Positions 2,979-32,486 of a DNA stretch of 64,000 nt are shown piece by piece (position 1 is the first letter of the stretch; every line of letters starts with the position of its first letter). Position numbers and translations under genes: made by a program. Source of the stretch: an uncultured archaeon (GTDB taxonomy: Archaea; Nanobdellota; Nanobdellia; Pacearchaeales; GW2011-AR1); contig CABMGE010000010.1 of assembly GCA_902385625.1 (NCBI GenBank), positions 39,589 to 103,588 on the forward strand. The letters are read 5' to 3'. The notes beneath the pieces were generated by a model. The model was not told the DNA's origin. It did no database searches and saw nothing but the letters and a program-made list of their open reading frames with translations.

Positions 2979-2983
2979 ACATA

Positions 2984-8123: not shown

Positions 8124-8124
8124 T

Positions 8125-9768
8125 TTAACTTCCTATATTTAATTTTTGCACCAAAGTAAGATTTAAATATTTATTGTTTTCCTTTGGAAAATCTTCCCTG
8201 AAATGACAGGCCCTGCTTTCTTCTCTTAACAAGGCACTTTCAATTATTACATGGGCAACTTCAACTATATTTCTTACCTCTAAAAAATCCTTTGTTACTT
8301 TGTAACTCCAATAATATTCTTTTATACTTTTTTCAAGAGACTTAATTATATCAAGTGCAGCAACTAATCTTTCTTTACTTCTTGACATTCCACAAAGGGC
8401 GTTCATTGTTCTTCTGACTACTTCCCAATAATATCCAACAGTTATTTTATCTCTGGATTCTTTCGCACTTCCTGTTCTCCAAAGAGGAATTTTTATTGAT
8501 TCTGGACTTTTTGTTTGTGATAAGAAATGCTTTGCTGCAAGCTCTGCAAATAAAATACATTCAGGACCTGAATTACTTGCAAGCCGAGTTGCGCCATGCA
8601 GCCCTGTGTAAGATGTTTCTCCAAGAACATAGCATCCGTTTATTTCAGTTTCACTATTTTTTCCAACTAAAACTCCTCCATTAGAGTAGTGTTCTGCATA
8701 AACAACAGGAACAGGCTCTTTTGTTATATCATATCCGTGCTTTTTACAAAATTCATAAGAGTTTTTAAAATCATTTTTTAATCTTTCTTTATCTATTTTT
8801 GTGCAGTCAAGCCAAACATGTGAAAGTCCATTTTTTCTCATCTCAATATCCTCTGCCCTTGAGACTACATCTCTTGTTGCTTTTGATCCCATTGGATCAT
8901 ATTTTAAAACAAAGTCCTCACTTGAGTTCATTGAAAGTTTGAGAATTGCTCCTGCTCCTCTTAATGCTTCTGTTAGTAAAAATCTTCTTTCAGTTTCATT
9001 TGTTGCAGAGGGATCATAAAAAACAGTAGGATGAAACTGAATAAATTCCATATTTGCAAGTGGGAGTCCTCTTCTATAACACATTGCAAAGCCATCTCCT
9101 GTTGCAACATCAGGATTTGAAGTATAAAGGAATGTTTTTCCAAGACCTCCTGTTGCAACAAAGGTTGCTTCACACTCCACAGTTTTTACATAATCATTTG
9201 TTATATCATAAACATAAAATCCAAAGCAGATATCATTTCCTGATTTTTTTTCTTGTAATTTATCTTTTGTTATAAGATCAATTACCATATGATTTTCATA
9301 TATAGTTATATTTGGATGATTAATAATTAGGTTTCTCAAAGTTTCCATAATTGTCTTTCCTGTTGTGTCTTTTATATGAAAAATCCTATTTTTCGAGTGC
9401 CCTCCTTCCCTATGAAGATCAAATTCTCCATCCTGCAAATCAAATTTTATTCCTCTTTTAATTAACCATTCAATTACATCTGAATAAAAATGTTCTGCAC
9501 AGTATTTTACAATTTTCTCATCATTAAGACCTTTTCCAGCTGCCAAGGTCTCTTTTACATGAAGATCAAAAGAATCATTTGTGAAGTTTGGAATTTTAAC
9601 TGCTGTAAGTCCTCCTGCAAGAAGATAACTACTGCAGTCTTCAGTTAATTTATTTTTTATAAAGAGTGCAACCTTTTTCCCTGCATCTGCAAGTTCAAGC
9701 GCAACTGCTGCTCCTGCAAGCCCTGCTCCGATTACTCCGCAATCTGCTTTTATTAAATCATTTGGCAT
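8125..9768 (-). CDS. nadB: L-aspartate oxidase (FAD flavoprotein)
   Basis: GVIGAGLAGAA dinucleotide fold, HREGGHS, LTEALRGAGAIL, RLASNS. Track ORF reaches 9789; the ATG at 9768 sits just after the nadR stop. Confidence 0.85.
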   Translation of the reverse strand: MPNDLIKADCGVIGAGLAGAAVALELADAGKKVALFIKNKLTEDCSSYLLAGGLTAVKIPNFTNDSFDLHVKETLAAGKGLNDEKIVKYCAEHFYSDVIEWLIKRGIKFDLQDGEFDLHREGGHSKNRIFHIKDTTGKTIMETLRNLIINHPNITIYENHMVIDLITKDKLQEKKSGNDICFGFYVYDITNDYVKTVECEATFVATGGLGKTFLYTSNPDVATGDGFAMCYRRGLPLANMEFIQFHPTVFYDPSATNETERRFLLTEALRGAGAILKLSMNSSEDFVLKYDPMGSKATRDVVSRAEDIEMRKNGLSHVWLDCTKIDKERLKNDFKNSYEFCKKHGYDITKEPVPVVYAEHYSNGGVLVGKNSETEINGCYVLGETSYTGLHGATRLASNSGPECILFAELAAKHFLSQTKSPESIKIPLWRTGSAKESRDKITVGYYWEVVRRTMNALCGMSRSKERLVAALDIIKSLEKSIKEYYWSYKVTKDFLEVRNIVEVAHVIIESALLREESRACHFREDFPKENNKYLNLTLVQKLNIGS

Positions 9769-9769
9769 C

Positions 9770-10801
9770 TTATTCCTTGGTCTTTTCAAAAAGCTTGTTT
9801 ACCAAAGATCTTGCGCTATCAAATCTTTCTTTATAATTTCCAGAAATTGTTACAAAATCAATTCCTCTATCTTTATACATTTGTTTTAGAATTTCATTGT
9901 TTTTCATTCTTACTTCTTTTTCACCTTTATTTCTAAGTCCATCAGGAACCCATTTTACATCAGGTTCAAGATATATAACAAGATCATATTTTTGTTTTTT
10001 AGCTATTTCATCGATCAAATTTGATCTTTCACCATTAAAATACATATCAAGATAATACTGAGTTATTACTGCTTCGCTATCTACAAACAAAACCTTATTA
10101 CTAGTTTCTGCTTTTTTATCTTGTAAAAGAAAATGCTCCATTGCAATCTTATCAAACATTTCTACTGTCAATTGATTCTTATATTTATCACAATAATCTC
10201 TTCCTACTTCTTGTACAAACTCAGTATTATAGAATTTTGCAAGTTTTTTTGTAAGAGTTGATTTTCCGCAACTTTCTGTTCCAACAATTGCAACTCTCTT
10301 TGTAAAATATGATCTTACAGTGTTTGGCAGTTTATCCCAGTTATCATAAAGATTTATTCTTAAATCGGTTGCAGATGTAGTGACTGTTTTTCTTTTATCG
10401 TCGATTACAATATGTTTTGAATTTGGATAATATTTCTTAAAAATTTCATCATAAGAGTGTTCTGAACTAAAAACAAAATCAATCGGTTTTCCAATAGCTT
10501 TTTTAATCATTTCTGCACCTTTTTCCCAGTTATAATCTTTATCCCACTGATCATCTTCAATATGAATTATTTTTACATTTTCAAGATTATTTAGAGATTC
10601 TCCAATCCAAGAGAGCCTTACATCTGCCGGAATATATTTTATCCCATCTCTTTCGCATAATTCGCGATCCCGATTTTTTGATGAAGATACAATCACATAT
10701 AGTTCATCCACCTGATTTGATGCATCCATTATTGTATAAATATGGCCTTGATGAAATGGTAGATATTTCCCACCAATAAATCCTACTGTTTTATTTTCCA
10801 T
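9770..10801 (-). CDS. nadR: NadR-type bifunctional NMN adenylyltransferase / ribosylnicotinamide kinase (no N-terminal HTH)
   Basis: GGKYLPFHQGH nucleotidyltransferase motif; P-loop GTESCGKST. Track ORF reaches 10849; ATG at 10801 preferred. Confidence 0.85.
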   Translation of the reverse strand: MENKTVGFIGGKYLPFHQGHIYTIMDASNQVDELYVIVSSSKNRDRELCERDGIKYIPADVRLSWIGESLNNLENVKIIHIEDDQWDKDYNWEKGAEMIKKAIGKPIDFVFSSEHSYDEIFKKYYPNSKHIVIDDKRKTVTTSATDLRINLYDNWDKLPNTVRSYFTKRVAIVGTESCGKSTLTKKLAKFYNTEFVQEVGRDYCDKYKNQLTVEMFDKIAMEHFLLQDKKAETSNKVLFVDSEAVITQYYLDMYFNGERSNLIDEIAKKQKYDLVIYLEPDVKWVPDGLRNKGEKEVRMKNNEILKQMYKDRGIDFVTISGNYKERFDSARSLVNKLFEKTKE

Positions 10802-11519
10802 TTTGTTCTTTTTCAAGCTTCCTCCAGTTATAATATCCATAAAGAGCATTTACTAAAAATGCTGTCCACATAACAAGCATGCTGACTTGGTTACCATCTC
10901 TTAAAAAGATGTAAACCCACATTACAATAGACCAAACATCAACCATTATCCAGTAAAACCATTGGTCTGAATATCTTTTTGTTAGAAAAACTGTAGCAAT
11001 AATTGAAAAAATAGTTGTCGTTGAATCAATAAATGGAAGTGTTCCATGTATTGCTTTTAAAAGAAGGCCAAAAAAGTATAAGGCAATTAGAGATACTATA
11101 AACCAAAATATTTTATCTCTCCATTTTAAACTTTTTACAAGTACTCTTTCTGAAACATTTATTTTTTTATAATTTTTTTTCCAATAATAGATTCCTGGAA
11201 AGGTCATTGGAAGGAAAAATAACATGTTTAGACCAACATCACCATAATAAGCACTTTGCCATGCTACATAAGAGTAAGCAAGAATATTTATTATTCCCCA
11301 ATAAAAACTGCTGATTTTTCCCTTGGCAGTTAATACTACGCAAAGCATTCCTGTAATTGAAGCTGTAAGGCCTATCCAAGTATCATGCCACGCGAAAAAC
11401 AAGCAGATATTGATTATTGTGAATGAAACTAACCAGATTTTCTCAAATGTTGTCCAATCATTAAAATAATTTTTAATACGGGTAGATCTTTTCAATTTTT
11501 GTTCTGAATTTGTTTTCAT
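10791..11519 (-). CDS. pnuC: nicotinamide riboside transporter PnuC
   Basis: 242-aa polytopic membrane protein; TGMLCVVLTAKGKISSFYWGIINILAY typical of PnuC; adjacent to nadR. Confidence 0.85.
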   Translation of the reverse strand: MKTNSEQKLKRSTRIKNYFNDWTTFEKIWLVSFTIINICLFFAWHDTWIGLTASITGMLCVVLTAKGKISSFYWGIINILAYSYVAWQSAYYGDVGLNMLFFLPMTFPGIYYWKKNYKKINVSERVLVKSLKWRDKIFWFIVSLIALYFFGLLLKAIHGTLPFIDSTTTIFSIIATVFLTKRYSDQWFYWIMVDVWSIVMWVYIFLRDGNQVSMLVMWTAFLVNALYGYYNWRKLEKEQNGK

Positions 11520-12358
11520 ATTTTGAATTTTGTTTTTAATTTTTTATCTAGATTAATTAGATAATCTCTTCCAAAATTATTGTTTTCAAGACCCTTTATT
11601 AATGTTTCTGGAAGATCATTTTTTATTTCTTTTGAGCATGAAGCCGCACCCATTGCTATTGCTGCAACTGTATCTACATCTCCTCCAAAATTAACACAAG
11701 TTTCAAGAACTTTTGAAAGAGAGTCTTCTTTTTGAATCGCAGTTATTCCAGCCATAACTGCCATGAATCCTTTTGCACCAACTTCCCCTTTCCAAGGCAA
11801 ATTCCAGTTACCTGGAACATAGTTAGAAATGAATTTACCTAAATTTTTCTTTTCTCCAAGATCATAAATAAAATAGTGTGACATTAATGCTGCTGCAACT
11901 GCGGCATCCATTCCACCCGAGGTATTATGAGTAATTGATCCTTGAAATTTAACATAATCTATTAATTGACCTATATCTGGCAAAAACCCTAGTGGAGGAG
12001 CACGCATTGCACCTCCATTTTTATCACTATTAGGCTTTATTTTTTCTAAAAATTCCTTTCCTGATTTTATTTCCTTTAAAAATAAATAAAAAGCTCCTGC
12101 ATAACCTTCTCTTTCATCTCTTTTAAAAACTTCAACAAATTTATTTGCAATGTTTAATTGAGTCCATTCTTTATTCTCGAGTAATAATTCTGCAATTCCT
12201 ATACTCATCTGAGTATCATCAGTATATCTACCATTACCAATATCATATTTTTGATGTTTACGATAGGAACTTAAATCATTAAATTTTTCAATTATTTCTC
12301 TTGGAACATATTCAAATCCTGCACCGTATGCATCGCCTATAGCAATTTCCAGTAACAT
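11516..12358 (-). CDS. ADP-ribosylglycohydrolase (ARH/DraG family)
   Basis: N-terminal IGDAYGAGFEY, GRYTDDTQMS, C-terminal GGDVDTVAAIAMG. Confidence 0.8.
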   Translation of the reverse strand: MLLEIAIGDAYGAGFEYVPREIIEKFNDLSSYRKHQKYDIGNGRYTDDTQMSIGIAELLLENKEWTQLNIANKFVEVFKRDEREGYAGAFYLFLKEIKSGKEFLEKIKPNSDKNGGAMRAPPLGFLPDIGQLIDYVKFQGSITHNTSGGMDAAVAAALMSHYFIYDLGEKKNLGKFISNYVPGNWNLPWKGEVGAKGFMAVMAGITAIQKEDSLSKVLETCVNFGGDVDTVAAIAMGAASCSKEIKNDLPETLIKGLENNNFGRDYLINLDKKLKTKFKI

Positions 12359-12359
12359 T

Positions 12360-13151
12360 TTAGCTCCTTACAAAATCTATAATTTTATTTTTAAGGTCCA
12401 AATCAACATCGCAACTTACAAATCTATTTTTAGAAACTTGTTTGAATTTTACATAAGGCTCCTCAAGTCCTGCACTAACGGTTAGAACATCATACATTGC
12501 ACATTTGGTTTTTGGAGGATGATCTATCCAGGAGTCTGTATTTGTATAATCTAGCCATCTTACTGCACTTTCATATAAAAAATTGCCAAGAGGACTTACA
12601 TTTAACTTGGCGAGCTCATCTTTTGTAAATGATATCTTATCTGAGTCTTCTTTTGTCACCTGATAAATATTCCAAGGCTCCTCTTGAACTCTTTTCCAGG
12701 ATTCTATATCGGATTTAAAATTGTGAGAGTCAATACAACCACCCATAACATAAAGGTCTTTTACATTTTTAATAGTCGGATTTATCTCTAACTGTAATGC
12801 AATATTTGTCAAAGGACCGATACAAATTAGTTTAGTATTTTTTGTATAAGTTGGATAAGGACTGTTCTTAAAGGATTCTTTTAATTCTTCCTCGGTTAAT
12901 GCAAGTTTTTCAAATCCAGTCCAGTATTTTTTAATAGAAGATTTAGGTCCTGCAACTCCTGCAGTTATTGGAATATCTACTCCTAAAAGTCTTTCGAGTT
13001 TTCGTGTAATCCTTGCTCTAATTTCTGTATCTCCATGGGTTAAAGTTATTCCAACTAGATTTGAATTTGGATTTTTAATTGCATATGTTAATGCAAACAA
13101 ATCATCAACATCTGTTCCTGCATCTGAGTCTATTATTATTCTTTGTTTCAT
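12360..13151 (-). CDS. nucleoside hydrolase (IU-NH family)
   Basis: IIIDSDAGTDVDDLFAL aspartate cluster. Confidence 0.8.
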   Translation of the reverse strand: MKQRIIIDSDAGTDVDDLFALTYAIKNPNSNLVGITLTHGDTEIRARITRKLERLLGVDIPITAGVAGPKSSIKKYWTGFEKLALTEEELKESFKNSPYPTYTKNTKLICIGPLTNIALQLEINPTIKNVKDLYVMGGCIDSHNFKSDIESWKRVQEEPWNIYQVTKEDSDKISFTKDELAKLNVSPLGNFLYESAVRWLDYTNTDSWIDHPPKTKCAMYDVLTVSAGLEEPYVKFKQVSKNRFVSCDVDLDLKNKIIDFVRS

Positions 13152-13152
13152 T

Positions 13153-13752
13153 TTAGACTCCTGCTCCCAGTATTCTCATTTTTTCTTCTTCTGCGCTTTT
13201 GTAAAATTTAGAATTCTTATATTCCAGAGTCTGTTTTCCAAATTCCCTTTTAAATCTCTCAATAATTTTTTTCTCTTGCAGATAATTTGCTACTGAAGCT
13301 GGAACCATAGGTTTCCAATTTCTATCTTTTGCAATTTCTATTCTTACTTTTGAAGAGTTTAATTCAGACTCTTTAAACTCCGGGACTATTTCAAAAGGAT
13401 GTAAAATTTTGTAAGTGTCTTTTAAAATTTCAGTTACGTAGGCATTTCCAGTAATAAAATAATCTAAATTTCCAAAATGACTAATAACTGCAGATTTCCA
13501 TTTTTTATCGTTTCCAAAATCAATAAGCTCAATGAAAGAATAATTTGCAAATTTTGAAGACAAAAAAGTTTCAATCATCTCTATTGACTCTTTTGCGCTA
13601 AAAGGATTTCTTAGATCATATTTATTTGAACTCCCAATTCCAATAATAACAGAATCTGAATTTCTGCAAACAGATTCGAGTAAAGCAGAGTTTCCATTAT
13701 GAAGAGGCTTAAATCTTCCAATTAAACCAACTCTTCCAAACTTAGTATCCAT
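13153..13752 (-). CDS. archaeal-type nicotinamide-nucleotide adenylyltransferase-like protein
   Basis: GLIGRFKPLHNGN (HxGH-like), GIGSSNKYDLRNPFSAKESIEMIE. Track ORF reaches 13794; ATG at 13752 follows the upstream stop at 13757. Confidence 0.65.
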   Translation of the reverse strand: MDTKFGRVGLIGRFKPLHNGNSALLESVCRNSDSVIIGIGSSNKYDLRNPFSAKESIEMIETFLSSKFANYSFIELIDFGNDKKWKSAVISHFGNLDYFITGNAYVTEILKDTYKILHPFEIVPEFKESELNSSKVRIEIAKDRNWKPMVPASVANYLQEKKIIERFKREFGKQTLEYKNSKFYKSAEEEKMRILGAGV

Positions 13753-13756
13753 TTTA

Positions 13757-14347
13757 TTATCCAACAACCCTCTTATAATTTTGGCTCTGTTCATATTTTA
13801 AAACAAGCTCTTTAGAATGCTCAGATAAATTTTGGAATTCTCTTTCTTTTAGGTAAATACAAAGAATAACTGGATGGCTTTTAAATGCCCAAACAGCGTC
13901 AGAATTCTTCTTTTCAGGTTCATAAAAAGGTTTATCCAAAAGATTTGCTATGTCTTCAATTGTAAGCACTCTTGCATTTTTTGCATCTTCATCTGGATGA
14001 GGCATTAACTTTCCAACTCCAACTCCTGTAAAAGTTATGCTTGAAACAAATGCCCTTGGATCTTGCTCAGGATAAGATAAGACACATAATGGTTTGTAAA
14101 ACGGCTTATCTACAATAAAATCAAGACCTGTCTCTTCAAGTCCTTCTTTTATTGAATTTTTATGAAAGTGCATTTTCTCTGCCATTCCTCCTGGAATTGC
14201 AAGTCCAAAAGGAGGAAATTTTCTTTCAATAAGCACTAATCCTCCATTATATCTTACAAGTAGATCTGTTGCACAGTAAGGGCCTTCATACTTATCTTTT
14301 AGATATTCTTTAAATGTGGGATATATTTTTTTATCTGGATTTGGCAT
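13757..14347 (-). CDS. Nudix hydrolase (ADP-ribose pyrophosphatase candidate)
   Basis: Partial Nudix box PGGMAEKMHFHKNSIKEGLEETGL. Confidence 0.7.
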   Translation of the reverse strand: MPNPDKKIYPTFKEYLKDKYEGPYCATDLLVRYNGGLVLIERKFPPFGLAIPGGMAEKMHFHKNSIKEGLEETGLDFIVDKPFYKPLCVLSYPEQDPRAFVSSITFTGVGVGKLMPHPDEDAKNARVLTIEDIANLLDKPFYEPEKKNSDAVWAFKSHPVILCIYLKEREFQNLSEHSKELVLKYEQSQNYKRVVG

Positions 14348-14348
14348 T

Positions 14349-16349
14349 TTATTCTCCTGGATTATATTTTGTCATCTTCTGCAAAATCTCCTGTTTTAAT
14401 TCAAGTTGTTTTTCTGTTGGCTCATAAGGCAATATGCTTTCTCTTAAATCATATCCAAATGCAGTTTTACTTGTGATAATTATTGGGGCAGACTGGACTC
14501 TTTTCCATACACTGTTTTGAAATTTCATACTGAATTCTTCTATGTCTTTTACAAATTCTTTTGGATTATCAACTCCCCATCTTTTCATTAGCTCGTATGA
14601 AAGTCCTTTTGGATTTTTTACAAGTCCATCAAAATATTTATCCAGATGTTTATCAAGTGTTCCTTTAAGATACATTTCCATTAAATCAGCTGCACTTGCC
14701 TTTTTGTAATCAGTCATTGCCTCAGTTATAGCACAGTGATATCCAAATTTCATTGGATCAAACTGTTTTTCCTTAAGTTCAGCAGTAGGCATTATCTGAT
14801 CCTTTTTAAAATTCCAAAGTCTGTCTGGAAAAAGAATTTCAGGTATAACTTCATCATGGAATATTTCTTGGTTCACATACTTTGACATTTCCATTATTTC
14901 TGTTTTTGTAAGATCTGCAATAGGACAGATTGCTCCTCTCATATCTCCATCAAGAGTTCCATATCCGAGTATTACTTCAAGTTTGTTTGCATTGCAAGTA
15001 TAAATTCCATTACACATTGCAGCAATATTTGAAAGAACAGGGATAGATCTGATTTTCGCTTGTAAATTTTCCTTATTTAAAACCGATAATTTTTTTCCCA
15101 AACCTTCTTCTAGTAATTTTGCATTAACATCAACAAGTTCTTGTATTGGAATTACATGATACTGTATTCCAAGTTTTTGTGCTGTAAATTCTGCAGAATC
15201 TTTTGTTTTTTGACTGTTATATTCTGTTGGCATATTTATTGCTATAACATTTTCCTTTCCTCTTGCAATTACCAAAAGAGCAGTAACAAGTGAACTATCT
15301 ACTCCTCCTGAAAGGCCAGTTACAGCTTTTTCTCCATAAAGACTTTCGAGTCCTCTGATTATTGCATGGTATTTTTGAACTATCTTGGGTTTTTCTTTTC
15401 TTATTTTTGGTTTTCCAAGATTTTCTGTATCAACAAACATTAGTTGAGGCCTGTAAGCTTCTTTTGCAAAATCCACAGGCATTCCATCTTTATTATAAAC
15501 TGTTGTTCCTCCATCAAATGTAACAATGTTTTTTCCATTATTCTGAACTCCTGTACAATTTACATAAAAAAACGGAACAAAAGAATTATTACATTCCTGT
15601 TTTAAAAACTGAACTCTTCTATCTCTTGCACCATTCTTTCCATAAGTCCAGGGTGATGCAGAGAGATTAACAATAAATTCTGCTCCATTATTGATTAGAA
15701 TCTTTGTTGGATTTAGTGAGTTTAGGTTTCTTCTATAGTCTTCACACCATAAGTCCTCGCATAATTCAAATCCTACTGGAACTTTCTTTTTAGTCCCATC
15801 TTTTTGTGTTGTCTCAATTAAAAATGGTTGAAGCAGTTCTTCTAGTGAACAATTAAATTCCTGAGCAATATCAACTGTTGAAAAAAAGTATCTTTCATCA
15901 TCAAATATCCTATAGTTGGGAAGGTTTGTCTTTGCTTGTATTCCTGCTGGCAAGAATTTTGTTTCTTTTAATCTTTCTGCAGGCTTACCATTTTGAAATA
16001 CATAAACTGCATTATATTTTCTTGTTCTTCCGTCTTCATTTGGATGGATTGATTTTAATCCTGTTCTTTTATTTATTTCTTCAGTTGGATCAACATAGAC
16101 ATTTCCATAAGCAATTGCAATTCCATTACTTGCTTTTCTTAATATTTCATTTTTCGCAATTAAATCCTGGCAAGATTCTTCATTTGTCCATTTGTCTCCA
16201 AGAAGATATCCTCCAACGCAAAGTTCTGTAAATGAAATTAAGTCTGCTCCTTGTCTTTTTGCTTCTTCGATCATAGGTATCATCATTTTTTCCAGATTTT
16301 TTTTAGGCATTCCTGGAACAACTTCAATTTGAGCAAGTGCTATTTTCAT
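14349..16349 (-). CDS. nadE: glutamine-dependent NAD+ synthetase (CN-hydrolase + PP-loop synthetase)
   Basis: 666 aa; N-terminal nitrilase-like domain (FTELC, FELCEDLW); GLSGGVDSS PP-loop. Confidence 0.85.
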   Translation of the reverse strand: MKIALAQIEVVPGMPKKNLEKMMIPMIEEAKRQGADLISFTELCVGGYLLGDKWTNEESCQDLIAKNEILRKASNGIAIAYGNVYVDPTEEINKRTGLKSIHPNEDGRTRKYNAVYVFQNGKPAERLKETKFLPAGIQAKTNLPNYRIFDDERYFFSTVDIAQEFNCSLEELLQPFLIETTQKDGTKKKVPVGFELCEDLWCEDYRRNLNSLNPTKILINNGAEFIVNLSASPWTYGKNGARDRRVQFLKQECNNSFVPFFYVNCTGVQNNGKNIVTFDGGTTVYNKDGMPVDFAKEAYRPQLMFVDTENLGKPKIRKEKPKIVQKYHAIIRGLESLYGEKAVTGLSGGVDSSLVTALLVIARGKENVIAINMPTEYNSQKTKDSAEFTAQKLGIQYHVIPIQELVDVNAKLLEEGLGKKLSVLNKENLQAKIRSIPVLSNIAAMCNGIYTCNANKLEVILGYGTLDGDMRGAICPIADLTKTEIMEMSKYVNQEIFHDEVIPEILFPDRLWNFKKDQIMPTAELKEKQFDPMKFGYHCAITEAMTDYKKASAADLMEMYLKGTLDKHLDKYFDGLVKNPKGLSYELMKRWGVDNPKEFVKDIEEFSMKFQNSVWKRVQSAPIIITSKTAFGYDLRESILPYEPTEKQLELKQEILQKMTKYNPGE

Positions 16350-16353
16350 GGTT

Positions 16354-16620
16354 TTACCTGTCCTCCTCTAGCTTTTCCAGAGGTATTCCTTTTAGATTTG
16401 GAAGCAACTCTTTTATTCGAGTAGTTAGGTCATTTCTTTTTATATAATCTGCAATTTTTTTATCCATAAAGTCCTTGTAATTCCAATCATTTACCATTGC
16501 AGCCCGGACAAAAGTTCCACTCACATACATTGGTTTTCTTGTTCTTACATTTTTTCCATCAATATTTACCTTTTCTACATAAAGCATTTCACTTTTTGGA
16601 AAGACTTCTTCTGGTTGCAA
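16354..16620 (-). CDS. hypothetical protein inside the NAD operon
   Basis: 88-aa ORF, 4 nt after it the nadE start; no motif. Confidence 0.5.
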   Translation of the reverse strand: MQPEEVFPKSEMLYVEKVNIDGKNVRTRKPMYVSGTFVRAAMVNDWNYKDFMDKKIADYIKRNDLTTRIKELLPNLKGIPLEKLEEDR

Positions 16621-16644
16621 TATTTCATATCTAATTGTATCTCT

Positions 16645-17097
16645 TTATTTCACTCCACCTTCAAACTGATTTTTTCTGTAAATATTTAAGTCATATTGGT
16701 TATTGCTTATGACCTCTGTAAATGGATGATTTATTTTCCAAAGATGATTAAACCATGCATTATCATCTCCAAAATCAGGAAGTGGTTTAATCTCGTAGTT
16801 TTTACAATGTCCTTTTAGAGCAAGTTCGATCATATCCTGTCTTTCTTCTATTTTAAAAGGATTTTTTTCATTGAACTTATTTGAGCTTCCAAGATTAACT
16901 TTAACAAAAACACTTTTCTTGCAAAGTTCTCTAAGCATATTTGTGTGATTTATATGAGGAGGATTTGCCCTCATTATTGTTACAACTTCTCCAAATATTT
17001 TATCATCTGGAAGAATTCTTTGATAATCATCAACAGCTTCTCCTGCATGAGCATATTTGTATTGCAAAAATTCTGGAATATCTAATTTATAAGTCAT
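16645..17097 (-). CDS. short NMNAT-like nucleotidyltransferase paralog
   Basis: IMRANPPHINHTN and LGSSNKFNEKNPFKIEERQDMIE parallel the 13153..13752 protein. Confidence 0.5.
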   Translation of the reverse strand: MTYKLDIPEFLQYKYAHAGEAVDDYQRILPDDKIFGEVVTIMRANPPHINHTNMLRELCKKSVFVKVNLGSSNKFNEKNPFKIEERQDMIELALKGHCKNYEIKPLPDFGDDNAWFNHLWKINHPFTEVISNNQYDLNIYRKNQFEGGVK

Positions 17098-17669
17098 AAT
17101 ATTCCCTCCAATATATCTTTAGTTTTTACTAGCTTTGCACCTGCTGAAACCATTTCATCTAAGGCAGTTGAATTTTGTACTGAACCTTTAACTCCATCAG
17201 TTACAACATAACATTGCACTTTCATTTTTTGTAGTCCTATAACCGCTGCTTTTACACTTTTCTCTGTTTCAACTCCATAAACAACTGCGCTTTCTGGTTT
17301 TGCAATTTCCAAGAAAGCTTTTGTATTGGGATTTGTAAAAACATCATAACTTTGTTTTTCAAAATAGATTCCATTAGGTAGCCAGTATTCTGCATAAACT
17401 TGATCGAGTTCATCAATTGCACGATTCATTCTTTCGAGTTTTAAATTACCCAGTAAAACTGGATGATTTGACAAAACGGTTTCAGGTATTTTTGAGTTTT
17501 CTTTTAGTTGAGACTTATCAATGCTTCCTAACACAGGAACTCTATTCTTTTTTGCGTAATCTGTAAGCAACTTCAAATTAGGTTTGATTAGTTCTGAATC
17601 AGGAACATAAAGAGCTCCATCTTTATTCATGAAACATTCTTGAGTATCTGTATCATAAAAAACCCTCAT
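17094..17669 (-). CDS. isochorismatase/nicotinamidase-fold protein lacking the catalytic cysteine
   Basis: Paralog of the next gene (FEKQSYDVFTNPN shared). The ATDYCD site is replaced by VETEKS. Confidence 0.6.
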   Translation of the reverse strand: MRVFYDTDTQECFMNKDGALYVPDSELIKPNLKLLTDYAKKNRVPVLGSIDKSQLKENSKIPETVLSNHPVLLGNLKLERMNRAIDELDQVYAEYWLPNGIYFEKQSYDVFTNPNTKAFLEIAKPESAVVYGVETEKSVKAAVIGLQKMKVQCYVVTDGVKGSVQNSTALDEMVSAGAKLVKTKDILEGIL

Positions 17670-26105: not shown

Positions 26106-26844
26106 TTTTTTCAATTGCAGATTGTATTTTAGATATTGATGATTCATATATTAAAGATTTTAATGCGATTAGAGAAGCTTCATAATAATTATTATTTGCA
26201 AGTGCGCTGTAAACTCTTGTGCAAGTAGCATTATCATCGATACAACCAAGTATTGAATCACTAAATACTAATGCTCCAAGATCAGATCTTGACTTGACCC
26301 CTAAAAGATAGGGTTTTGATTTATCATTTAGTTGACTTGCAACCATTTCACCTATTGCCTCGTAAAAAGGATCAAGTTTTCTTAGATTTGGAGAACTTAA
26401 ATCAACTGGTCTCTCTAAATCATATCTTTTCCTTATTTCAGACTCTTGTTTTTTAGTCAGTGCTTTTTTTCCTGACTTTACAAGAGCTTCTTTTGCAAAA
26501 AGACCTGTTTCAAACACAACTGTTTCAAGATTTAGATAAGAAGATCCTTTTTCTCCTTTATCTTCTCCCTTTTCCCTTTCTGATTCTCTTAATTTTTTTG
26601 ATATTGTCTCAAGATTATCGCATACAGTGTAACCTGGTTCTACAACTTTTGTGAAGTATTCAAGAAACATTAAAGACTTAAAATATTCAATGGGCTTTAC
26701 TCTTGTCCGGTCTATAACCTCGGTTGATACAAGTTTTTGAAAAAAAGTATTTTCATGCATACTGAATACTACCTTATATTCCAAATCATGCAAAGGTGAT
26801 AAATTTTTTACGATTGTTCCAATATGTTCATTTTCGTTTACCAT
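26095..26844 (-). CDS. hypothetical protein (orphan 3 of the MoxR-vWA operon)
   Basis: 249-aa ORF, overlaps its neighbours by 7 and 11 nt; central K/E-rich segment; no motif. Confidence 0.6.
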   Translation of the reverse strand: MVNENEHIGTIVKNLSPLHDLEYKVVFSMHENTFFQKLVSTEVIDRTRVKPIEYFKSLMFLEYFTKVVEPGYTVCDNLETISKKLRESEREKGEDKGEKGSSYLNLETVVFETGLFAKEALVKSGKKALTKKQESEIRKRYDLERPVDLSSPNLRKLDPFYEAIGEMVASQLNDKSKPYLLGVKSRSDLGALVFSDSILGCIDDNATCTRVYSALANNNYYEASLIALKSLIYESSISKIQSAIEKNAK

Positions 26845-27698
26845 TTTATACTCCTTGCAGCCTCTACTTTTATATTTTTTTCAATTAATTTTTGATAAGT
26901 TTTTTCAAGAGTATTAGTAGTTTCCCTATACCTTGGTATCCAGTAGAGATCATCAAGGAATAATTCTGCACTTCTTTCGCTATGATAAATTTTATTTCTA
27001 ACCATTGGAAGGGCTTTTCTGTGAACCTTGTCTTTATTTGCAGTGATCATATCTGAAATATCTTTTGGAGAGGCATTTCCACTTAATTTTTGAATTTTTT
27101 TATAAAAATCAGGATCAAAACTTCCCTCGAATATTGAGATATATTCAGGAATTGTCAAAAGATCATATACTTTTTTGTCTAAAACAAGTATTCTTTCAGA
27201 GCCTTGCATTTCAGAATTAAAAATAGAGCCATCATCAAGTTTTGTCACAAGTCCTTTTCCAACAATTGATTGAGCATTGGGCTTTATCATTTTTTCATAT
27301 ACTTTGTTAATTCTTTCAATCAGTTCTTGTCCTAGCTGATTACTTGCTCTTACTTTTGCTCCAGTAGAACCAAGATCAGTTATTCCGTTTACAACACGCT
27401 CAATAAAATCCTGCTTCACCTTAGTTATTTTATCTAAATTTTCTGAAAAATATCTGTCTTCTTGTATTTTTGGAGACTCTATTTCATCAAGTCCAAAAAC
27501 TCTTGTGTAAACTTTTATTCTTTTGTCCTGAACTGGATTTTTTGAAGCAACAAAAATATGCCCATTGTAGATTATTTGAAGGCAATCTCTTGAAAACACA
27601 GGTGGCTCTGGAATATTTAGAGATGAATCTATTTCTGCATCTATTATTTTTATATCATCTTCAAAAAACATATTGCCTCCGCGAATTACTTTTGCCAT
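26838..27698 (-). CDS. hypothetical protein (orphan 2 of the MoxR-vWA operon)
   Basis: 286-aa ORF, 1-nt stop/start overlap at 27698; no motif. Confidence 0.6.
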   Translation of the reverse strand: MAKVIRGGNMFFEDDIKIIDAEIDSSLNIPEPPVFSRDCLQIIYNGHIFVASKNPVQDKRIKVYTRVFGLDEIESPKIQEDRYFSENLDKITKVKQDFIERVVNGITDLGSTGAKVRASNQLGQELIERINKVYEKMIKPNAQSIVGKGLVTKLDDGSIFNSEMQGSERILVLDKKVYDLLTIPEYISIFEGSFDPDFYKKIQKLSGNASPKDISDMITANKDKVHRKALPMVRNKIYHSERSAELFLDDLYWIPRYRETTNTLEKTYQKLIEKNIKVEAARSIKW

Positions 27699-28249
27699 TA
27701 TTCTTTTATCTCCAAAGATTTAATTGACTCTGAATCCAAAAGACCCATGTGAGCAAGTAGCCCGACTACCATTACTCTTTCTGCTATTTGTCTGTAATTT
27801 CTGCCTTCGGGAATATCGGCGGCTTTTGGATGATTTAATCCCACACTTAATAAATTAAAAGATAATTTTGGAACAGTTTTATAAATTCTTATTTGAGAAT
27901 CTTTTTCATAGGAAGAGAGAAACTCTTTTCCAAGTTCCTCAGACAACTTATCATAAGAAGCTATTGCAATATTGAGTTCTGTTTTTTCATCAGTTACACA
28001 ATTTCCAGACCAGTCAAATAAAACAGAGTCAGTTGAAGGGTAAAAAACCGCAGTTCCTGTTGCCCAAAAACTACAATCTCCTCCTTCAGGTGTTAAAGGT
28101 TTAATTCCTTCATAAAGTATTGGTTCAATATACTTAGGTCTTTTTATTCCGTGATAGATTAATTTTTTATTATTAGACTCATCTATAATTCTTTTTACTA
28201 ATGAATCCATTTTAATTCCAAGTATTTCAGATATTTTTTCTTCAATCAT
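27698..28249 (-). CDS. hypothetical protein (orphan 1); weak resemblance to an H-Y-E ADP-ribosyltransferase core
   Basis: ATGA overlap with the QueC-like gene at 28246-28249. LIYHGIKRPKYIEPILYEGIKP...CSFWATG recalls hhHG(S/T)x6IhxxGh...YFA. The CDS call is solid; the fold call is tentative. Confidence 0.55.
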   Translation of the reverse strand: MIEEKISEILGIKMDSLVKRIIDESNNKKLIYHGIKRPKYIEPILYEGIKPLTPEGGDCSFWATGTAVFYPSTDSVLFDWSGNCVTDEKTELNIAIASYDKLSEELGKEFLSSYEKDSQIRIYKTVPKLSFNLLSVGLNHPKAADIPEGRNYRQIAERVMVVGLLAHMGLLDSESIKSLEIKE

Positions 28250-29112
28250 ATTGTTATCTCCCTTGTTTTGTATTCCAGAGGATCTTCCATATTCAGCTCC
28301 CTGAAGGCTTTTAATCTTTTCTGACATGCAAAACATGTTCCATCTGCAACAAGATCTGAACTAAAACAAGTTCTTGTTTTTTCAACTGGAATAAAATTTT
28401 GCATTGCATATTCAATTATATCTCGTTTAAAAATAGGATGATAGTCTTTACCTAAGCTATTTTCAGAAATTATATTAGGATCTGTAAATGGAGAGGTTAT
28501 TTGCCAGTCCCAATCTCCAAGTTGCACACATGTGCTTAAAGTTTGAGTTCTTAAACTTAAAAGCCCTTGTTCTGGTTCTATAAAATCATCTCCTGTGCTT
28601 GCTGAAAAAATTGTTTTAATGTTTAAATTATATCTTCCATTTAAAGAAACAGCATACATTACAGCAAGATTTTGCATTGTTGAATTTCTTAGAGGCAAAC
28701 CTTGTGTGAGTGAAAGTTCTTTTGGAAAATATTGTTTAAATTCCTTTGGAGGTACTTTATACTCTAGTTTAAATCCATCCCCAATATTACTTGGAAATCT
28801 TTTTTTATAAAAATCAATAAAAAAATCAAATGAATTTTCTTCATGTTTTTCTGCCCTTGCTCCTCTTTTGATAAAAAGCGGGTAAACTTTCGCACTATTA
28901 TTTTCAATTAAACTATTAATCATTACAATAGAGTCAAGTCCTCCTGAACAAAGTGCTACAACACTTTCCTTATTTGGAATTCTTGTAACATACTTTCTAT
29001 TCATTTGAAGAATTGCTTCAATTAACACAACATTTTCACTATAAAGGTTTTGAGCTTGCTTTACTCTTTCTCTTATTTGTTCTATTGTTTCTGGCATTTT
29101 TATTTTTTTCAC
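28246..29112 (-). CDS. QueC-like PP-loop ATPase
   Basis: VVALCSGGLDS, PLRNSTMQNL, SPFTD, C-terminal TCFSS...DGTCFACQKRLKAFRE Cys cluster, DPLEY. Confidence 0.75.
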   Translation of the reverse strand: MKKIKMPETIEQIRERVKQAQNLYSENVVLIEAILQMNRKYVTRIPNKESVVALCSGGLDSIVMINSLIENNSAKVYPLFIKRGARAEKHEENSFDFFIDFYKKRFPSNIGDGFKLEYKVPPKEFKQYFPKELSLTQGLPLRNSTMQNLAVMYAVSLNGRYNLNIKTIFSASTGDDFIEPEQGLLSLRTQTLSTCVQLGDWDWQITSPFTDPNIISENSLGKDYHPIFKRDIIEYAMQNFIPVEKTRTCFSSDLVADGTCFACQKRLKAFRELNMEDPLEYKTREITI

Positions 29113-29123
29113 CCTGTTTCATT

Positions 29124-30143
29124 TTAATTGTAATTTTCAGATATTGCTTTAAACAGTCCAATTGCTGCTTTTGCAGATTCTTTTCCTCTTGCAACATCAT
29201 CTCCAATCATAAATCGATTATATCCCATTAGTATTCCGCAATAGACATCAAATAATTCTGCACACCTTGGAATCTCATCAATATTTGAGAGAGACTCAAG
29301 CATTCTTGAAGCCATTACTGCTCTTGGATTTGATTTAATTATTTTTTTACACGCAGCAATCACATGATCTGGCTGGTCAACTTCAGTGTATAGATCCCCT
29401 CTTGCAGCCATTAGATCAATTCGATTTTTATATTTAGGATATACAGTATCAATAAATTCAAGTCCTTTTTTTGATTCTATTTTTGCAATTATTCTTGCTT
29501 TTGGATCAATAGATAAAAGATCAGTTATATCACTCTCTTTTTCAACAAAAGAAAGCATGAAATTATTCATTCCAAGACTTTTTCCAGCCTCAATATATTC
29601 TTTATCTTTATTTGTAAGGTATCCTTGAATTACTAAAGATGGATCAGTAATATTTACAGACATTCCAGGCCTTATTCCAATTTGACCTTGCAATGGGAGT
29701 GGAATACCTATTTTTCTTTCAACTGAACCTTCTACAACCAAGACATTATCATTTAATAGGTCTATAATTTGTCCCCTGTAATGAGCATTATCAGTGTAAA
29801 CCTCTGCAGGTTTTGTCACACTTATTTTGTGGCTCAAGGTAATATAATGAAGTTCTTTATCTCTTAGAAATTTTACATTGTAATCATCAACTCGAAGTTG
29901 CCTTGCCTTTAAATCAATCCAAACAGGTTTTAAATCTGCTTCAGATCTTACATGAGTAAGAATTTCCAAGGGAGTTTCTTTTAATCTTTGAGTTGTATTT
30001 AGCCTGACTGATTCCACAATATAACTATCTGCAAGACTTTTAAATTTTGCAAGAGGCGGCACTGTTAATACCATTCTTATTCTTCTCTTAGTCATGTTTT
30101 TGAAGGGGTTTATCATTTTATAAATTTTTCTACATGTTACCAC
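29124..30143 (-). CDS. pyruvate-kinase-like protein, A (TIM barrel) + B domains only, no C domain
   Basis: IIAKIESKKGLEFID, LMAARGDLYTEV, VMASRMLESL align with the PK motifs KIEN.EG, ARGDLG.E, ATQMLESM. Start may be ATG 30116. Confidence 0.7.
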   Translation of the reverse strand: MVTCRKIYKMINPFKNMTKRRIRMVLTVPPLAKFKSLADSYIVESVRLNTTQRLKETPLEILTHVRSEADLKPVWIDLKARQLRVDDYNVKFLRDKELHYITLSHKISVTKPAEVYTDNAHYRGQIIDLLNDNVLVVEGSVERKIGIPLPLQGQIGIRPGMSVNITDPSLVIQGYLTNKDKEYIEAGKSLGMNNFMLSFVEKESDITDLLSIDPKARIIAKIESKKGLEFIDTVYPKYKNRIDLMAARGDLYTEVDQPDHVIAACKKIIKSNPRAVMASRMLESLSNIDEIPRCAELFDVYCGILMGYNRFMIGDDVARGKESAKAAIGLFKAISENYN

Positions 30144-30167
30144 TCGAAAAGTGTATCAGAATTTAGC

Positions 30168-30186
30168 AAAAGACCTTAGGTCTTTT
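30168..30186 (-). terminator. perfect hairpin between the vWA paralog and the eight-gene operon
   Basis: AAAAGACCT-T-AGGTCTTTT (9-bp arms), 20 nt downstream of the stop at 30206. Confidence 0.45.
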
Positions 30187-30205
30187 TATCAAAACTTGAA
30201 AAAAA

Positions 30206-31201
30206 TTAATCAGTATCTATTTTCTTGCTAGATTTTCTTTTTGTAGGTTTTGAAGATAAAAGCGGGTGAAGAGTTCTGAGTACATCGTCAACTTGTCCAG
30301 GAGTTTGCCTTCTTCTAAGCATTTCTTCTGCTTCTTTGAAGTTATCTGCTGCATAACCAAAAATCCCGATCATGCAATCAACAGCACGATCAAAGTTGTC
30401 TCCCATTCTTAAAACTCTTTCAGGACCAAAAACATCTTCCCATTGTTTTTGAACTTTCGCATAATCATCTGAGTCATAGCTTAATTCAGGCCTTAGAACG
30501 AAAACATCAAATTTTTTCTTTAGTTTTTTCATTTCAGTTACAGTATCCAGGTCAGAAGTTAGATTAAGCCCCATATAGTTATTAACTTCTGAAGCTAAAA
30601 TTTTTGGATAGAATCCTTCATCTCCAAGTATGATTAAAGGGACTTTTGTTCCCTTAGGGACATTTGGAGTTTTGCTGTGATTTGCTAAATAATATATACC
30701 TAAGTCATAACTTTCTTTTACATTTCCTCCGCCCATACCTTCGGGAAAAATTCCTGCAACTCCTTTTACAAGATCAGTTCCATGGCAATAATCAAGTACC
30801 TGGAATGGAAATCTTTCTGGTCCGCGAGGATTTCTAGAGTCTCCAATTGCAATAATTGCCAAATCAAGCTTATCTTCTAGAGTGTTTCCTTTTTCAAGTT
30901 CCTTTAATTTCTTTCCTTGAATTGCTGCATTTGATTCTGCATAAAAAGTAGATATTTTTGTAAAAAACATTTCTGGAATTTTTTTCATTGATCCTGTTTG
31001 ATCGATTAAAATTGCTCCTGCATACTCACTATTTGTAGAAATATCTTTTCCATTTACTCCGGGCAAGCCAGTTCTTACTGGTGTAACATATTCTCTTTTA
31101 TCATCTACAGCATAATCCCTGGCTGTTTTTCTTGTAACGCTAGGTGCTGGACTAAAACTATAATCCCTTGAACTGCTGTAGTCTGAACTTGATCCTCCCA
31201 T
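30206..31201 (-). CDS. stand-alone vWA-like protein, paralog 2, with S/Y-rich N-terminus
   Basis: MGGSSSDYSSSRDYSFSP...; MIDAS-like LIDQTGSM; about 50-60% identical by eye to 31374..32345, including the C-terminal AEEMLRRRQTPGQVD. Confidence 0.7.
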   Translation of the reverse strand: MGGSSSDYSSSRDYSFSPAPSVTRKTARDYAVDDKREYVTPVRTGLPGVNGKDISTNSEYAGAILIDQTGSMKKIPEMFFTKISTFYAESNAAIQGKKLKELEKGNTLEDKLDLAIIAIGDSRNPRGPERFPFQVLDYCHGTDLVKGVAGIFPEGMGGGNVKESYDLGIYYLANHSKTPNVPKGTKVPLIILGDEGFYPKILASEVNNYMGLNLTSDLDTVTEMKKLKKKFDVFVLRPELSYDSDDYAKVQKQWEDVFGPERVLRMGDNFDRAVDCMIGIFGYAADNFKEAEEMLRRRQTPGQVDDVLRTLHPLLSSKPTKRKSSKKIDTD

Positions 31202-31373: not shown

Positions 31374-32345
31374 TTAATTTTTTTTAATTGTTCTCTTTCT
31401 TGCTGGCTTTGAAGATGTAAGTGGATGCAATGATTTCAAAACTTCATCAACTTGTCCAGGAGTTTGTCTTCTTCTAAGCATTTCCTCTGCTTGTTTGAAA
31501 TTATTTGCTGCATATCCTGCAATTCCTATAAAACAATCTACAAGTCTTGATGGATCGTTCATCTTCAAAACTTTTTGCGAGTTTCCACCTAGTAATTTTT
31601 GCCAGTGTTCATGTGCTTCTTTGTATACTACATTATCTGGTTCTGCACCTGGCTCGGGTCTTAATACATAACTATCAAACTTATTCAAAACTCTCTTCAT
31701 TACAGTATCTGATGAAAGTGAACTTGGTATTTTATCTCCAAATAATTTTTTAACATGGTCTTTGTGAATTGTAGAATAAAAGTCCTCATCGCAGGCATAA
31801 ACTAAAAGAGGTTTTTTCTTTGAATTTATCTTGCAATGATTATCAAGATAGTAAGCTACAAGTTCATAACTCTCTTCTCCAAATGGTCCGCCCCCTCCTT
31901 CTGGATGAATTGATTTAACTCCTTTAACAAGCTCTGATCCCTTTGAGAAATCAATGATTTGCAATGGGTAATTATCATAGTTCATATCTCCTACTGCAAT
32001 AATTGCCATTTCAAGTTTATCTTCTAATTTTTTTCCTGATTCCAAATCTTTTAGTCTTAATCCTTGTATTGCAGCATTAGATTCTGAATACAATGTTGGA
32101 ATTTTGTTAAAAATTAATTTTGGCCAGTCTTTCATAGATCCAGTAACATCAACAACAAAGATAGCTGCATAATCACTATCTGTAGAAATATTTTTTCCAT
32201 GCACTGTTGTTATGCCTCTTGTTGGAGCAGCATATTCTCTTTTATCCTCTTTTGCATAATCCCTTGCTGTTCTTTTTGTAACGCTAGGTGTAGGACTAAA
32301 GCTATAGTCTCTTGAACTTCCGTAATCTGAACTAAATCCTCCCAT
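31374..32345 (-). CDS. stand-alone vWA-like protein, paralog 1, with S/Y-rich N-terminus
   Basis: MGGFSSDYGSSRDYSFSP...; VVDVTGSM; HPEGGGGPFGEE; CDEDF. Confidence 0.7.
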   Translation of the reverse strand: MGGFSSDYGSSRDYSFSPTPSVTKRTARDYAKEDKREYAAPTRGITTVHGKNISTDSDYAAIFVVDVTGSMKDWPKLIFNKIPTLYSESNAAIQGLRLKDLESGKKLEDKLEMAIIAVGDMNYDNYPLQIIDFSKGSELVKGVKSIHPEGGGGPFGEESYELVAYYLDNHCKINSKKKPLLVYACDEDFYSTIHKDHVKKLFGDKIPSSLSSDTVMKRVLNKFDSYVLRPEPGAEPDNVVYKEAHEHWQKLLGGNSQKVLKMNDPSRLVDCFIGIAGYAANNFKQAEEMLRRRQTPGQVDEVLKSLHPLTSSKPARKRTIKKN

Positions 32346-32397: not shown

Positions 32398-32486
32398 GTT
32401 AGTGTTTATTTTACTATAACTTATTGTAGTATTTACACTATATAAATATTATTGTTGTGAATAATATATGTATTAATTACACTAAG
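32398..32486 (-). promoter_or_regulatory. promoter/operator module homologous to 20951..21037
   Basis: GTTAGTGT ... ACACTAAG ends; TGTA-N5-TACA at 32425-37 and 32469-81; ATATAAAT at 32440-47. Confidence 0.5.

Follow-up and report, generated by a model that had tools for sequence, protein, structure and literature searches.

What is the promoter module of about 88 bp that occurs twice in this stretch of archaeal DNA, and which regulator might act on it? The window, i.e. the whole stretch of 64 kb that was analysed here (contig CABMGE010000010.1, ~31% GC), carries the module at 32398-32486 and again at 20951-21037, in both cases upstream of minus-strand genes. The first copy precedes the gene 31374..32345, which codes for a protein with a von Willebrand factor A-like (vWA-like) fold and heads a co-directional island of ~11 kb, and the second precedes a 61-aa open reading frame (ORF; 20710..20895) heading a series of NAD genes. 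In a first-pass annotation it had been proposed that the vWA gene is co-regulated with the NAD operon or, alternatively, that a mobile promoter cassette had been copied to both places. The comparative analysis presented here makes it very probable that both modules are archaeal promoters with three operators each for the regulator NrtR, and that the NAD gene array, the island and the operon of nrtR itself would be switched on and off jointly.

Loci in other contigs and genomes that were used for comparison are designated by L-numbers (L001 etc.). The closest homologs of the NrtR and vWA-like proteins derive from sources named Nanoarchaeota, Nanoarchaeia, Pacearchaeota and Aenigmatarchaeota, and the window encodes a D-aminoacyl-tRNA deacylase of family PF04414; taken with the TATA and leaderless features, this assigns the window to a DPANN archaeon. 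When sequencing runs were screened for the window sequence, 5% of the sampled words turned up in a single DNA run, and the sequence was contained in no RNA run.

Architecture of the two promoter modules

Global alignment of the two modules gave 66 identical positions out of 86 aligned, with a score of 36 compared to a mean of -7.5 (standard deviation 4.7) for shuffles of one partner (z = 9.2), and the whole-length similarity described in the first-pass annotation was thereby confirmed. In a search of the whole window the module partner scored 37 and the best unrelated position 21, and no further copy rose above background within the 64 kb. The 2-nt gap that had been reported as the only indel is present, but the re-alignment adds two compensating 1-nt gaps. 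The TGTA-N5-TACA sites (32425-37 and 32469-81; in the NAD module at 20956, 20978 and 21020), the degenerate third site TGTT-N5-TACT (32403-15), the matching TATA position (ATATAAAT at 32440-47) and the similarity of the leaders, both of which terminate in CACAAAAA..CAA(C)ATG, were all found as described.

Each module is composed of three imperfect palindromes of 21 bp, designated operators A, B and C in the direction of transcription, with centres at 32475, 32431 and 32409 in the island module and at 21026, 20984 and 20962 in the NAD module. The distance between A and B is 44 bp (island) or 42 bp (NAD), approximately four turns of the helix, and that between B and C is 22 bp, approximately two turns. 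The space between A and B holds a TATA-like octamer (TTTATATA or TTTATAAA) that abuts B, and this arrangement of TTTATA(W)A followed by an operator is common to all modules. The usual archaeal distance from the TATA box was used to place the transcription starts. The predicted start falls at the upstream edge of operator C, B would span roughly positions -25 to -5 and C positions -3 to +18, and both leaders would have a length of ~70 nt. In each leader (about 32357-32375 and about 20922-20947) a small hairpin precedes CACAAAAA and the start codon, and a Shine-Dalgarno sequence is absent; the two hairpins are unlike in sequence and neither is retained in L007 or L061. A sigma-70 promoter scan of the NAD module performed no better than on shuffles, the host being archaeal.

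Operator motif and the nrtR gene

A symmetrised position weight matrix (PWM) was derived from seven window sites at three promoters, namely the six module sites and a single site at the promoter of a methyltransferase-nrtR operon. Its consensus is the 21-bp palindrome TTAGTGTA-N5-TACACTAA, and the two halves of each site are unequal, one being strong (TTAGTGTA) and the other weaker. When the window was scanned with this matrix the seven sites, which are also its training set, ranked highest apart from one outlier in coding DNA. GT-N7-AC is retained in all seven, including the degenerate island operator C (32399-32419), which also keeps one strong half-site. The pattern TGTA-N5-TACA occurs ten times in the window compared to 0.94 expected, a number reached in none of 100 shuffles. 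The position 48275-48295 (PWM 17.1) in a leuA/homocitrate-synthase-like gene was not taken as an operator, as shuffled windows reach 12-18, and the positions 2008-2028 (PWM 10.4, ~50 bp into nrtR) and 38161-38181 (weak) were likewise set aside as being within the shuffle range.

NrtR is a repressor that is released from DNA by ADP-ribose (Rodionov et al. 2008, PMC2330246). Its operators are 21-bp palindromes with the core GT-N7-AC that overlap promoters, with tandem sites each binding a dimer (PMC2330246), and a dimer of this family spans ~25 bp (PMC4666351). The window sites agree with this description in their length, palindromic form and GT-N7-AC core, in the presence of a cognate nrtR gene, in their position at NAD-gene and nrtR promoters (whose elements were assigned by consensus), and in their conservation upstream of orthologous genes.

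The cognate gene is ORF 1403..2068, the product of which matches NUDIX (PF00293, 8.8e-23) and NrtR_WHD (PF21906, 4.8e-20) in Pfam. In a search of PDB sequences it aligned over its full length with BtAraR (1.6e-46) and Shewanella NrtR (7e-40), and the Nudix box G-x5-E-x7-REUxEExGU is intact in its translation. The gene is located 18-30 kb from the two modules. Its promoter, which lies in front of the overlapping methyltransferase gene, reads TTTATATATAGTGTATTAATTACAATTATG and shows the order of TATA followed by operator that is seen at site B of both modules. Due to the position of the operator between the TATA tract and the ATG at 2978, the methyltransferase-nrtR transcript is probably leaderless. 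The methyltransferase-nrtR gene pair is kept in L003 and L059-L061, and NrtR is highly conserved in the DPANN group (>120 clusters at 72-90% identity).

Conservation and origin of the module

The gene order of the island is the same in L001-L012. NrtR-type sites are found upstream of it in L001/L002 (two), in L004/L005 (two) and in L007 (three, with spacings of 42 and 22), and a three-site module with spacings of 42 and 22 also precedes the NAD operon of L061. In a metagenome scan with the exact A-site pattern as query, five of the 80 listed loci (L074, L077, L123, L125 and L127) have a second site at +42, i.e. the A-B spacing of 42 bp, and a TATA box between the two sites. These five modules directly precede NAD salvage genes (NAPRTase, isochorismatase, NadE, or PnuC plus a NadR-like gene), with nrtR on the same contig in two cases, and in the other 75 listed loci the match stands alone, with no related genes.

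In L003 and L006 the island directly follows the NAD cluster and sites are present before the NAD cluster only. As the island occurs without sites in several related loci, its NrtR control would be lineage-specific and not universal: the predicted control is a feature of one low-GC lineage and not of all carriers. In the 43%-GC relatives L003 (9690-9760) and L006 (9680-9735) the island is preceded by another conserved element, AGTATATAC..AACGTTT..GTACATAAAGTATATATA, together with an ORF of 49-73 aa.

Six modules, the two of the window and four from other genomes, were compared pairwise. Their identities range from 66 to 83%; the window pair shares 72%, and the island module is 83% and 77% identical to its orthologs in L007 and L001, respectively. 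The likeness that had been noted is thus real, but recent copying, as implied by the term 'duplicated', is not shown when two modules of one genome are no closer than modules of different genomes and operons. The island-type modules have the spacer signature CACAACAAT in common and the NAD-type modules (C)TACCATAAT, which indicates that the two types diverged before these genomes split. The modules stand at orthologous promoters and are similarly alike in every pairing, and for this reason the comparisons point to a conserved promoter design, neither a miniature inverted-repeat transposable element (MITE) nor a recent copy.

Whether this design arose by an old duplication of a whole promoter or by independent assembly is a matter of origin only, and either course is compatible with the NrtR mechanism. 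A duplication is a serious candidate, although we stop short of calling it probable. The two window modules share the order of their elements, the orientation of the strong halves, the spacing of 42-44 and 22 bp, the placement of the TATA box and the ~70-nt leader, and even the spacer outside the operators can partly be aligned. On the other hand, the identity is concentrated in the operators and the TATA box, all modules are 66-83% alike regardless of genome and operon, as would be predicted from constraint alone, and L003 and L006 use a layout of two sites with a spacing of 52-53 bp for the same operon.

It is improbable that the palindromes are bound by another factor and that the presence of NrtR is coincidental. 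The NAD operon opens with four small proteins without Pfam match, and its first product of 61 aa could be such a factor, but these small proteins are absent from most loci that bear the motif. Moreover, the motif has the NrtR signature of a 21-bp palindrome with GT-N7-AC, is also found at the nrtR promoter, and travels with nrtR in Saccharibacteria, Muribaculaceae and DPANN even though the other genes differ.

The explanation that a mobile, MITE-like cassette bearing a promoter and terminal inverted repeats was copied to two places has very little probability left. The module does end in an inverted repeat (TTAGTGT ... ACACTAA; GTTAGTGT at 32398-32405 and ACACTAAG at 32479-32486), and the NAD copy pairs from end to end as single-stranded RNA (z = -4.85). 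However, the letters seen in the first-pass annotation are not a transposon feature but operator half-sites that recur inside the module, and the repeat arises because the strong halves (TTAGTGTA) of A and C face outwards. Furthermore, only two copies exist in 64 kb, with the rest at background; both are at promoters, their flanks differ (AAACC/CAAAA and TAATC/GGTAA) and neither shows a target-site duplication. Elsewhere modules occupy orthologous promoters with operon-specific spacers, the full module precedes only NAD genes among the 80 listed metagenome loci, and the pair within the genome is no closer than pairs between genomes. The MITE alternative was therefore largely refuted.

A structured leader RNA or riboswitch common to both units was rejected as next to impossible: compared to shuffles, both regions fold more favourably (z = -2.7 and -4.9) and each leader has its small hairpin before CACAAAAA..ATG, but most of the pairing uses operator A, which is upstream of the TATA box and hence outside the transcript, the TGTA/TACA arms measure just 4 bp, the hairpins are not conserved, and no Rfam match at gathering threshold was obtained anywhere in the window.

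Proposed mechanism

An archaeal operator that covers the transcription start, or is placed between it and the TATA box, implies that the pre-initiation complex or the polymerase is prevented from being recruited. For the promoters of the window it is proposed that each 21-bp operator binds one NrtR dimer, and that NrtR on B and C would block the recruitment of TBP/TFB or the entry of RNA polymerase. Site A, on the same helix face and four turns upstream of B, would probably stabilise this complex by cooperative binding. Binding of ADP-ribose or a related NAD metabolite to the Nudix domain would cause NrtR to leave the DNA, upon which joint derepression would extend to the NAD salvage array, to the vWA-like/QueC-like/AAA island and to the nrtR operon. 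Co-regulation of the island with the NAD genes, as suspected in the first-pass annotation, is well supported by the comparative sequence evidence, and its regulator can now be named as NrtR; what we infer from it is that NrtR binds, that it represses and does not activate, which effector it senses, and where the TATA boxes and starts are located.

Several points weigh against this proposal. The TATA boxes and transcription starts were placed by consensus alone. In L003, L006 and L008-L012 no site was detectable in front of the island. Site A, being upstream of the basal promoter, could equally act positively. Finally, the closest solved homolog, BtAraR, senses arabinose and not ADP-ribose, and the effector of the window NrtR is therefore not certain.

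If the proposal is correct, a concrete regulon would be available for a DPANN archaeon, comprising three promoters with seven operators, a regulator that can be named and a probable effector, in which a repressor of bacterial type is predicted to act on TATA-box promoters with a conserved layout of three operators. To our knowledge, almost no transcription factors of DPANN archaea have been characterised experimentally. The uncharacterised 11-kb island would be tied to NAD/ADP-ribose sensing, and this tie suggests the condition under which its function should be sought, namely derepression by ADP-ribose or NAD stress.

The genes under predicted joint control

The coordinates of the regulatory elements and genes are compiled in Table 1. 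The NAD module is followed downstream by co-directional genes over 13.5 kb, and the earlier designation as NAD operon is borne out by their content (pncB, nadE, pnuC, NAD kinase etc.). No Pfam match was obtained for the first four small proteins, the 61-aa ORF and three tandem paralogs of ~100 aa (19642-20895; direct repeats D2 and D7 with 70-73% DNA identity), which by eye resemble HicA/YcfA-like small proteins. Between the NAD array and an aldehyde dehydrogenase gene with the methyltransferase-nrtR operon, an opposite-strand ORF of 582 aa (5591-7339) is rich in internal direct repeats (D9, D11, D12, D15 and D16 at 6632-7267) and has no Pfam match.

Table 1. Regulatory elements and genes of the predicted NrtR regulon in the window. 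TATA boxes and predicted starts are assignments by consensus.
Feature	Coordinates	Strand	Description
NrtR gene	1403..2068	-	221 aa; ATG at 2068, end at 1403; Nudix plus NrtR winged helix
Methyltransferase gene	2058..2978	-	ATG at 2978; overlaps nrtR
Single operator, methyltransferase-nrtR promoter	2982..3002	-	ATAGTGTATTAATTACAATTA; PWM 21.0; between TATA tract 3000-3009 and ATG at 2978; same layout in L059/L060
NAD array	7341..20895	-	61-aa ORF, three ~100-aa paralogs, pncB, two isochorismatase/pncA-like, NMNAT-like, nadE, Nudix, second NMNAT-like, nucleoside hydrolase, ADP-ribosylglycohydrolase, pnuC, nadR-like (NMNAT + AAA_28), nadB-like, NAD kinase
ADP-ribosylglycohydrolase gene of NAD array	11516..12358		
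Operator C, NAD promoter	20952..20972	-	TATGTGTAATAAGTACACTAA; PWM 21.5; over predicted start (about 20969)
Operator B, NAD promoter	20974..20994	-	AAAGTGTAGAATATACAATAT; PWM 19.3
Putative TATA box, NAD promoter	20992..20999	-	TTTATAAA; read from sequence
Operator A, NAD promoter	21016..21036	-	TTAGTGTAAAATATACATATA; PWM 19.6; orthologous site in L061, L074, L077, L123, L125, L127
Rest of island	21087..31201	-	co-directional
PfkB kinase	21087..22040	-	
735-aa protein	22024..24231	-	
AAA_5-like protein, 636 aa	24237..26147	-	
Three island proteins, 212, 286 and 249 aa		-	no domain match
QueC-like protein	28246..29112	-	
Pyruvate-kinase-barrel-like protein	29124..30143	-	
vWA-like paralog	30206..31201	-	
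vWA-like first gene, 323 aa	31374..32345	-	N-terminal MGG; disordered tail of ~45 residues
Operator C, island promoter, degenerate	32399..32419	-	TTATAGTAAAATAAACACTAA; PWM 16.4; over predicted start (about 32416); near-identical degenerate site in L007
Operator B, island promoter	32421..32441	-	ATAGTGTAAATACTACAATAA; PWM 21.6, window maximum; between TATA and predicted start; identical 21-mer in L001/L002
Putative TATA box, island promoter	32439..32446	-	TTTATATA; abuts B; read from sequence
Operator A, island promoter	32465..32485	-	TTAGTGTAATTAATACATATA; PWM 19.6; contains TGTA-N5-TACA; distal, upstream of TATA; kept in L001, L004, L007

A gap of 50 bp separates the end of the island from the NAD module, and thus the two regulated units are adjacent. 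Because the gene junctions within the island are short or overlapping, its genes presumably form a single transcription unit. In most relatives (L001, L003 and L006-L009) Ham1p-like (inosine triphosphatase, ITPase) and thymidylate-synthase-like genes are located between the pyruvate-kinase (PK)-like and QueC-like genes; the window island and L004 are without them.

The product of 31374..32345 gave no match to a vWA sequence profile in Pfam, NCBIfam, PADLOC or PDB sequences. Its AlphaFold2 model (predicted local distance difference test score, pLDDT, of 86.5; residues 1-40 with low pLDDT) retrieved integrin beta-I, vWF A1/A3, CMG2 and BatB as top Foldseek matches, with E values of 1e-6 to 1e-4 and modest TM-scores of 0.35-0.6, and the residues D66, T68, G69 and S70 of a D-x-T-G-S motif, which resembles a metal-ion-dependent adhesion site (MIDAS), are invariant in 35 family sequences. 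The label 'vWA' of the first-pass annotation is thus supported at the level of the modelled fold, but not by a sequence profile. The QueC-like protein carries an SGGxDS loop and matches the PADLOC QueC model (4e-10) and QatC models (about 1e-3) weakly, and a search of PDB sequences with this protein gave no match. Apart from these weak QueC/QatC matches and a generic likeness to PfkB and pyruvate kinase, PADLOC and NCBIfam detected nothing on the island.

The vWA-like family and nrtR across phyla

Homologs of the vWA-like protein were found in Helarchaeota, Clostridia, Bacteroidota, Ignavibacteriales, Patescibacteria, Chloroflexi and many Actinobacteria. Across archaea, bacteria and phage the family starts with a near-invariant MGG, or with MG followed by an aromatic or small residue, after which a disordered tail of ~45 residues rich in Ser, Tyr and Asp follows; examples are 31374-32345 and 30206-31201 in the window, L035 (9791-10738), L050 (9815-10774) and L182 (3767-4789). 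The neighbouring genes are PK-barrel-like, adenylosuccinate-synthetase-like (AdSS-like) and kinase-like in Clostridia, Bacteroidota, Ignavibacteriales and one Patescibacteria locus, and AdSS-like, often together with kinase-like, in Actinobacteria, Chloroflexi and Saccharibacteria. If these loci are forms of one widespread module, its constant part would be an MG-starting vWA-fold protein with a disordered tail, often accompanied by a PK-barrel-like protein, and its variable part a QueC-like enzyme in archaea versus an AdSS-like enzyme plus a kinase-like protein in bacteria.

The nrtR gene adjoins the vWA-like operon in 24 actinobacterial loci, one Saccharibacteria locus and one Muribaculaceae locus. 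With the PWM derived from the archaeal window, strong paired sites were detected at vWA-like operon promoters in Caldilineaceae, where they overlap TTGACA and the -10 element, in Roseiflexaceae, in Muribaculaceae and in Saccharibacteria, where sites are also present in the nadE-nrtR divergon. The Caldilineaceae, Roseiflexaceae and Saccharibacteria genomes have a GC content of 51-63%, so that AT-rich palindromes are very unlikely to occur there by chance. In all 24 actinobacterial loci (~70% GC) a palindrome TTTTAGTC-N5-GACTAAAA with at most three mismatches is situated just upstream of the (kinase)-vWA-like-AdSS-like-nrtR operon, the next best position having at least five; in L035 it is 20 bp ahead of the ATG.

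About 140 jumbo mycobacteriophages (Bixzunavirus) and megaplasmids of Rhodococcus likewise carry the trio of kinase-like, vWA-like and AdSS-like genes. One phage example is L182 (Mycobacterium phage Sebata, NC_041993.1, 150212-153931; Ser/Thr-kinase-like, vWA-like and PurA-like), and the chromosomal trio adjoins nrtR in Nocardia, Mycobacterium and Gordonia. A literature search on the vWA-like/AdSS-like/kinase trio returned nothing. A core gene of the island thus accompanies nrtR or its operators from DPANN to Actinobacteria and is found in phages as well.

The function of the island can be addressed in a tentative manner only. A speculative reading, to which we give a rather low probability, is that the island is the archaeal form of a widespread NrtR-repressed module that is induced by ADP-ribose or NAD depletion, and that the QueC-like or AdSS-like enzyme modifies the N-terminal glycine of the vWA protein. 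By analogy with Cap9 and QatC, the modification may consist of a nucleobase or nucleotide on this glycine. If true, this would represent a new NAD-linked conflict or stress system with N-terminal protein modification.

Other features of the window

The segment 33758-35032 encodes a protein of 424 aa with a signal-peptide-like N-terminus and no Pfam match, which is made up of four to five tandem repeats of 144-147 nt (33985-34651) coding for a unit rich in Cys (GPGGCKGKEECDKFCEDEANFNxC). Two copies of AAGTTAATCTCGCTTCGCGAGATGAC with the perfect GC-rich palindrome TCTCGCTTCGCGAGA (44654-44722 and 59339-59407; 2 observed, 0 expected) are located just after plus-strand genes and may be terminator-like or processing hairpins. 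A tRNA scan of the window gave no matches.

Comparison with known systems

The regulator family is already known; what is new is NrtR predicted at work in archaea and the uncharacterised island that it appears to control. In a literature search no paper on an archaeal NrtR or an archaeal NrtR regulon was found, and no fusion of Nudix and winged helix was found in a study of Nudix proteins of S. acidocaldarius. The archaeal repressors MDR1, Phr, LrpA and TrmB have their binding sites at the TATA box or shortly after it; they belong to other protein families and have other ligands than NrtR.

The operators of bacterial NrtR, e.g. at the prs-nadV tandem of Shewanella oneidensis and at nadA, nadE and nadM of Synechocystis, are likewise 21-bp GT-N7-AC palindromes that overlap promoters, with several sites being possible (PMC2330246). 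Bacterial NrtR also combines Nudix and winged helix, as in the window, and its targets are genes of the pncA/pncB/nadE/nadM/pnuC type and often nrtR (PMC2330246). Unlike the bacterial systems, the one described here resides in a DPANN host with TATA-box promoters and a putatively leaderless nrtR operon, has a fixed layout of three sites and includes an 11-kb island in its predicted regulon. BtAraR of Bacteroides thetaiotaomicron, the closest solved homolog, binds as a dimer over ~25 bp with one or two dimers per promoter (PMC4666351); its effector is L-arabinose and its regulon sugar catabolism, whereas in the window protein the Nudix box is intact and the predicted regulon concerns NAD.

The actinobacterial vWA-like and AdSS-like genes may be the 'nrtX-nrtY' of Rodionov et al. 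2008. The latter are genes of unknown function under predicted NrtR control in Actinobacteria, the phylum shared with the vWA-like/AdSS-like/nrtR loci, but their orientation differs in the cases listed. The names nrtX and nrtY were found in this sense in no other paper.

In ARG-centred conflict systems (Iyer et al. 2022, PMC9503650, section 3.8) a Nudix-helix-turn-helix (HTH) or WYL repressor occurs together with vWA chaperones. The Nudix-HTH protein is a predicted ADP-ribose sensor over operons that can hold a vWA protein; in the window an ADP-ribosylglycohydrolase is encoded in the NAD array. Unlike these systems, the island is without ARG, rhodanese-phosphatase and REase genes, its core in archaea being vWA-like, PK-barrel-like and QueC-like; the AdSS-like plus kinase-like core of the bacterial and phage counterparts is equally different.

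The QueC-family enzymes Cap9 of type IV CBASS (an anti-phage signalling system that uses cyclic oligonucleotides) and QatC of QatABCD target the glycine at the N-terminus of a partner with a disordered tail (PMC13279940; bioRxiv 10.1101/2025.04.06.647259). Unlike CBASS and Qat, the island is without CD-NTase, QatA, QatB and QatD, and the likeness is one of gene context: the operons of Cap9 and QatC combine a QueC-like gene with a Met-Gly partner that has a long disordered N-terminus, and the same combination is seen in the island with its vWA-like protein starting with MGG.

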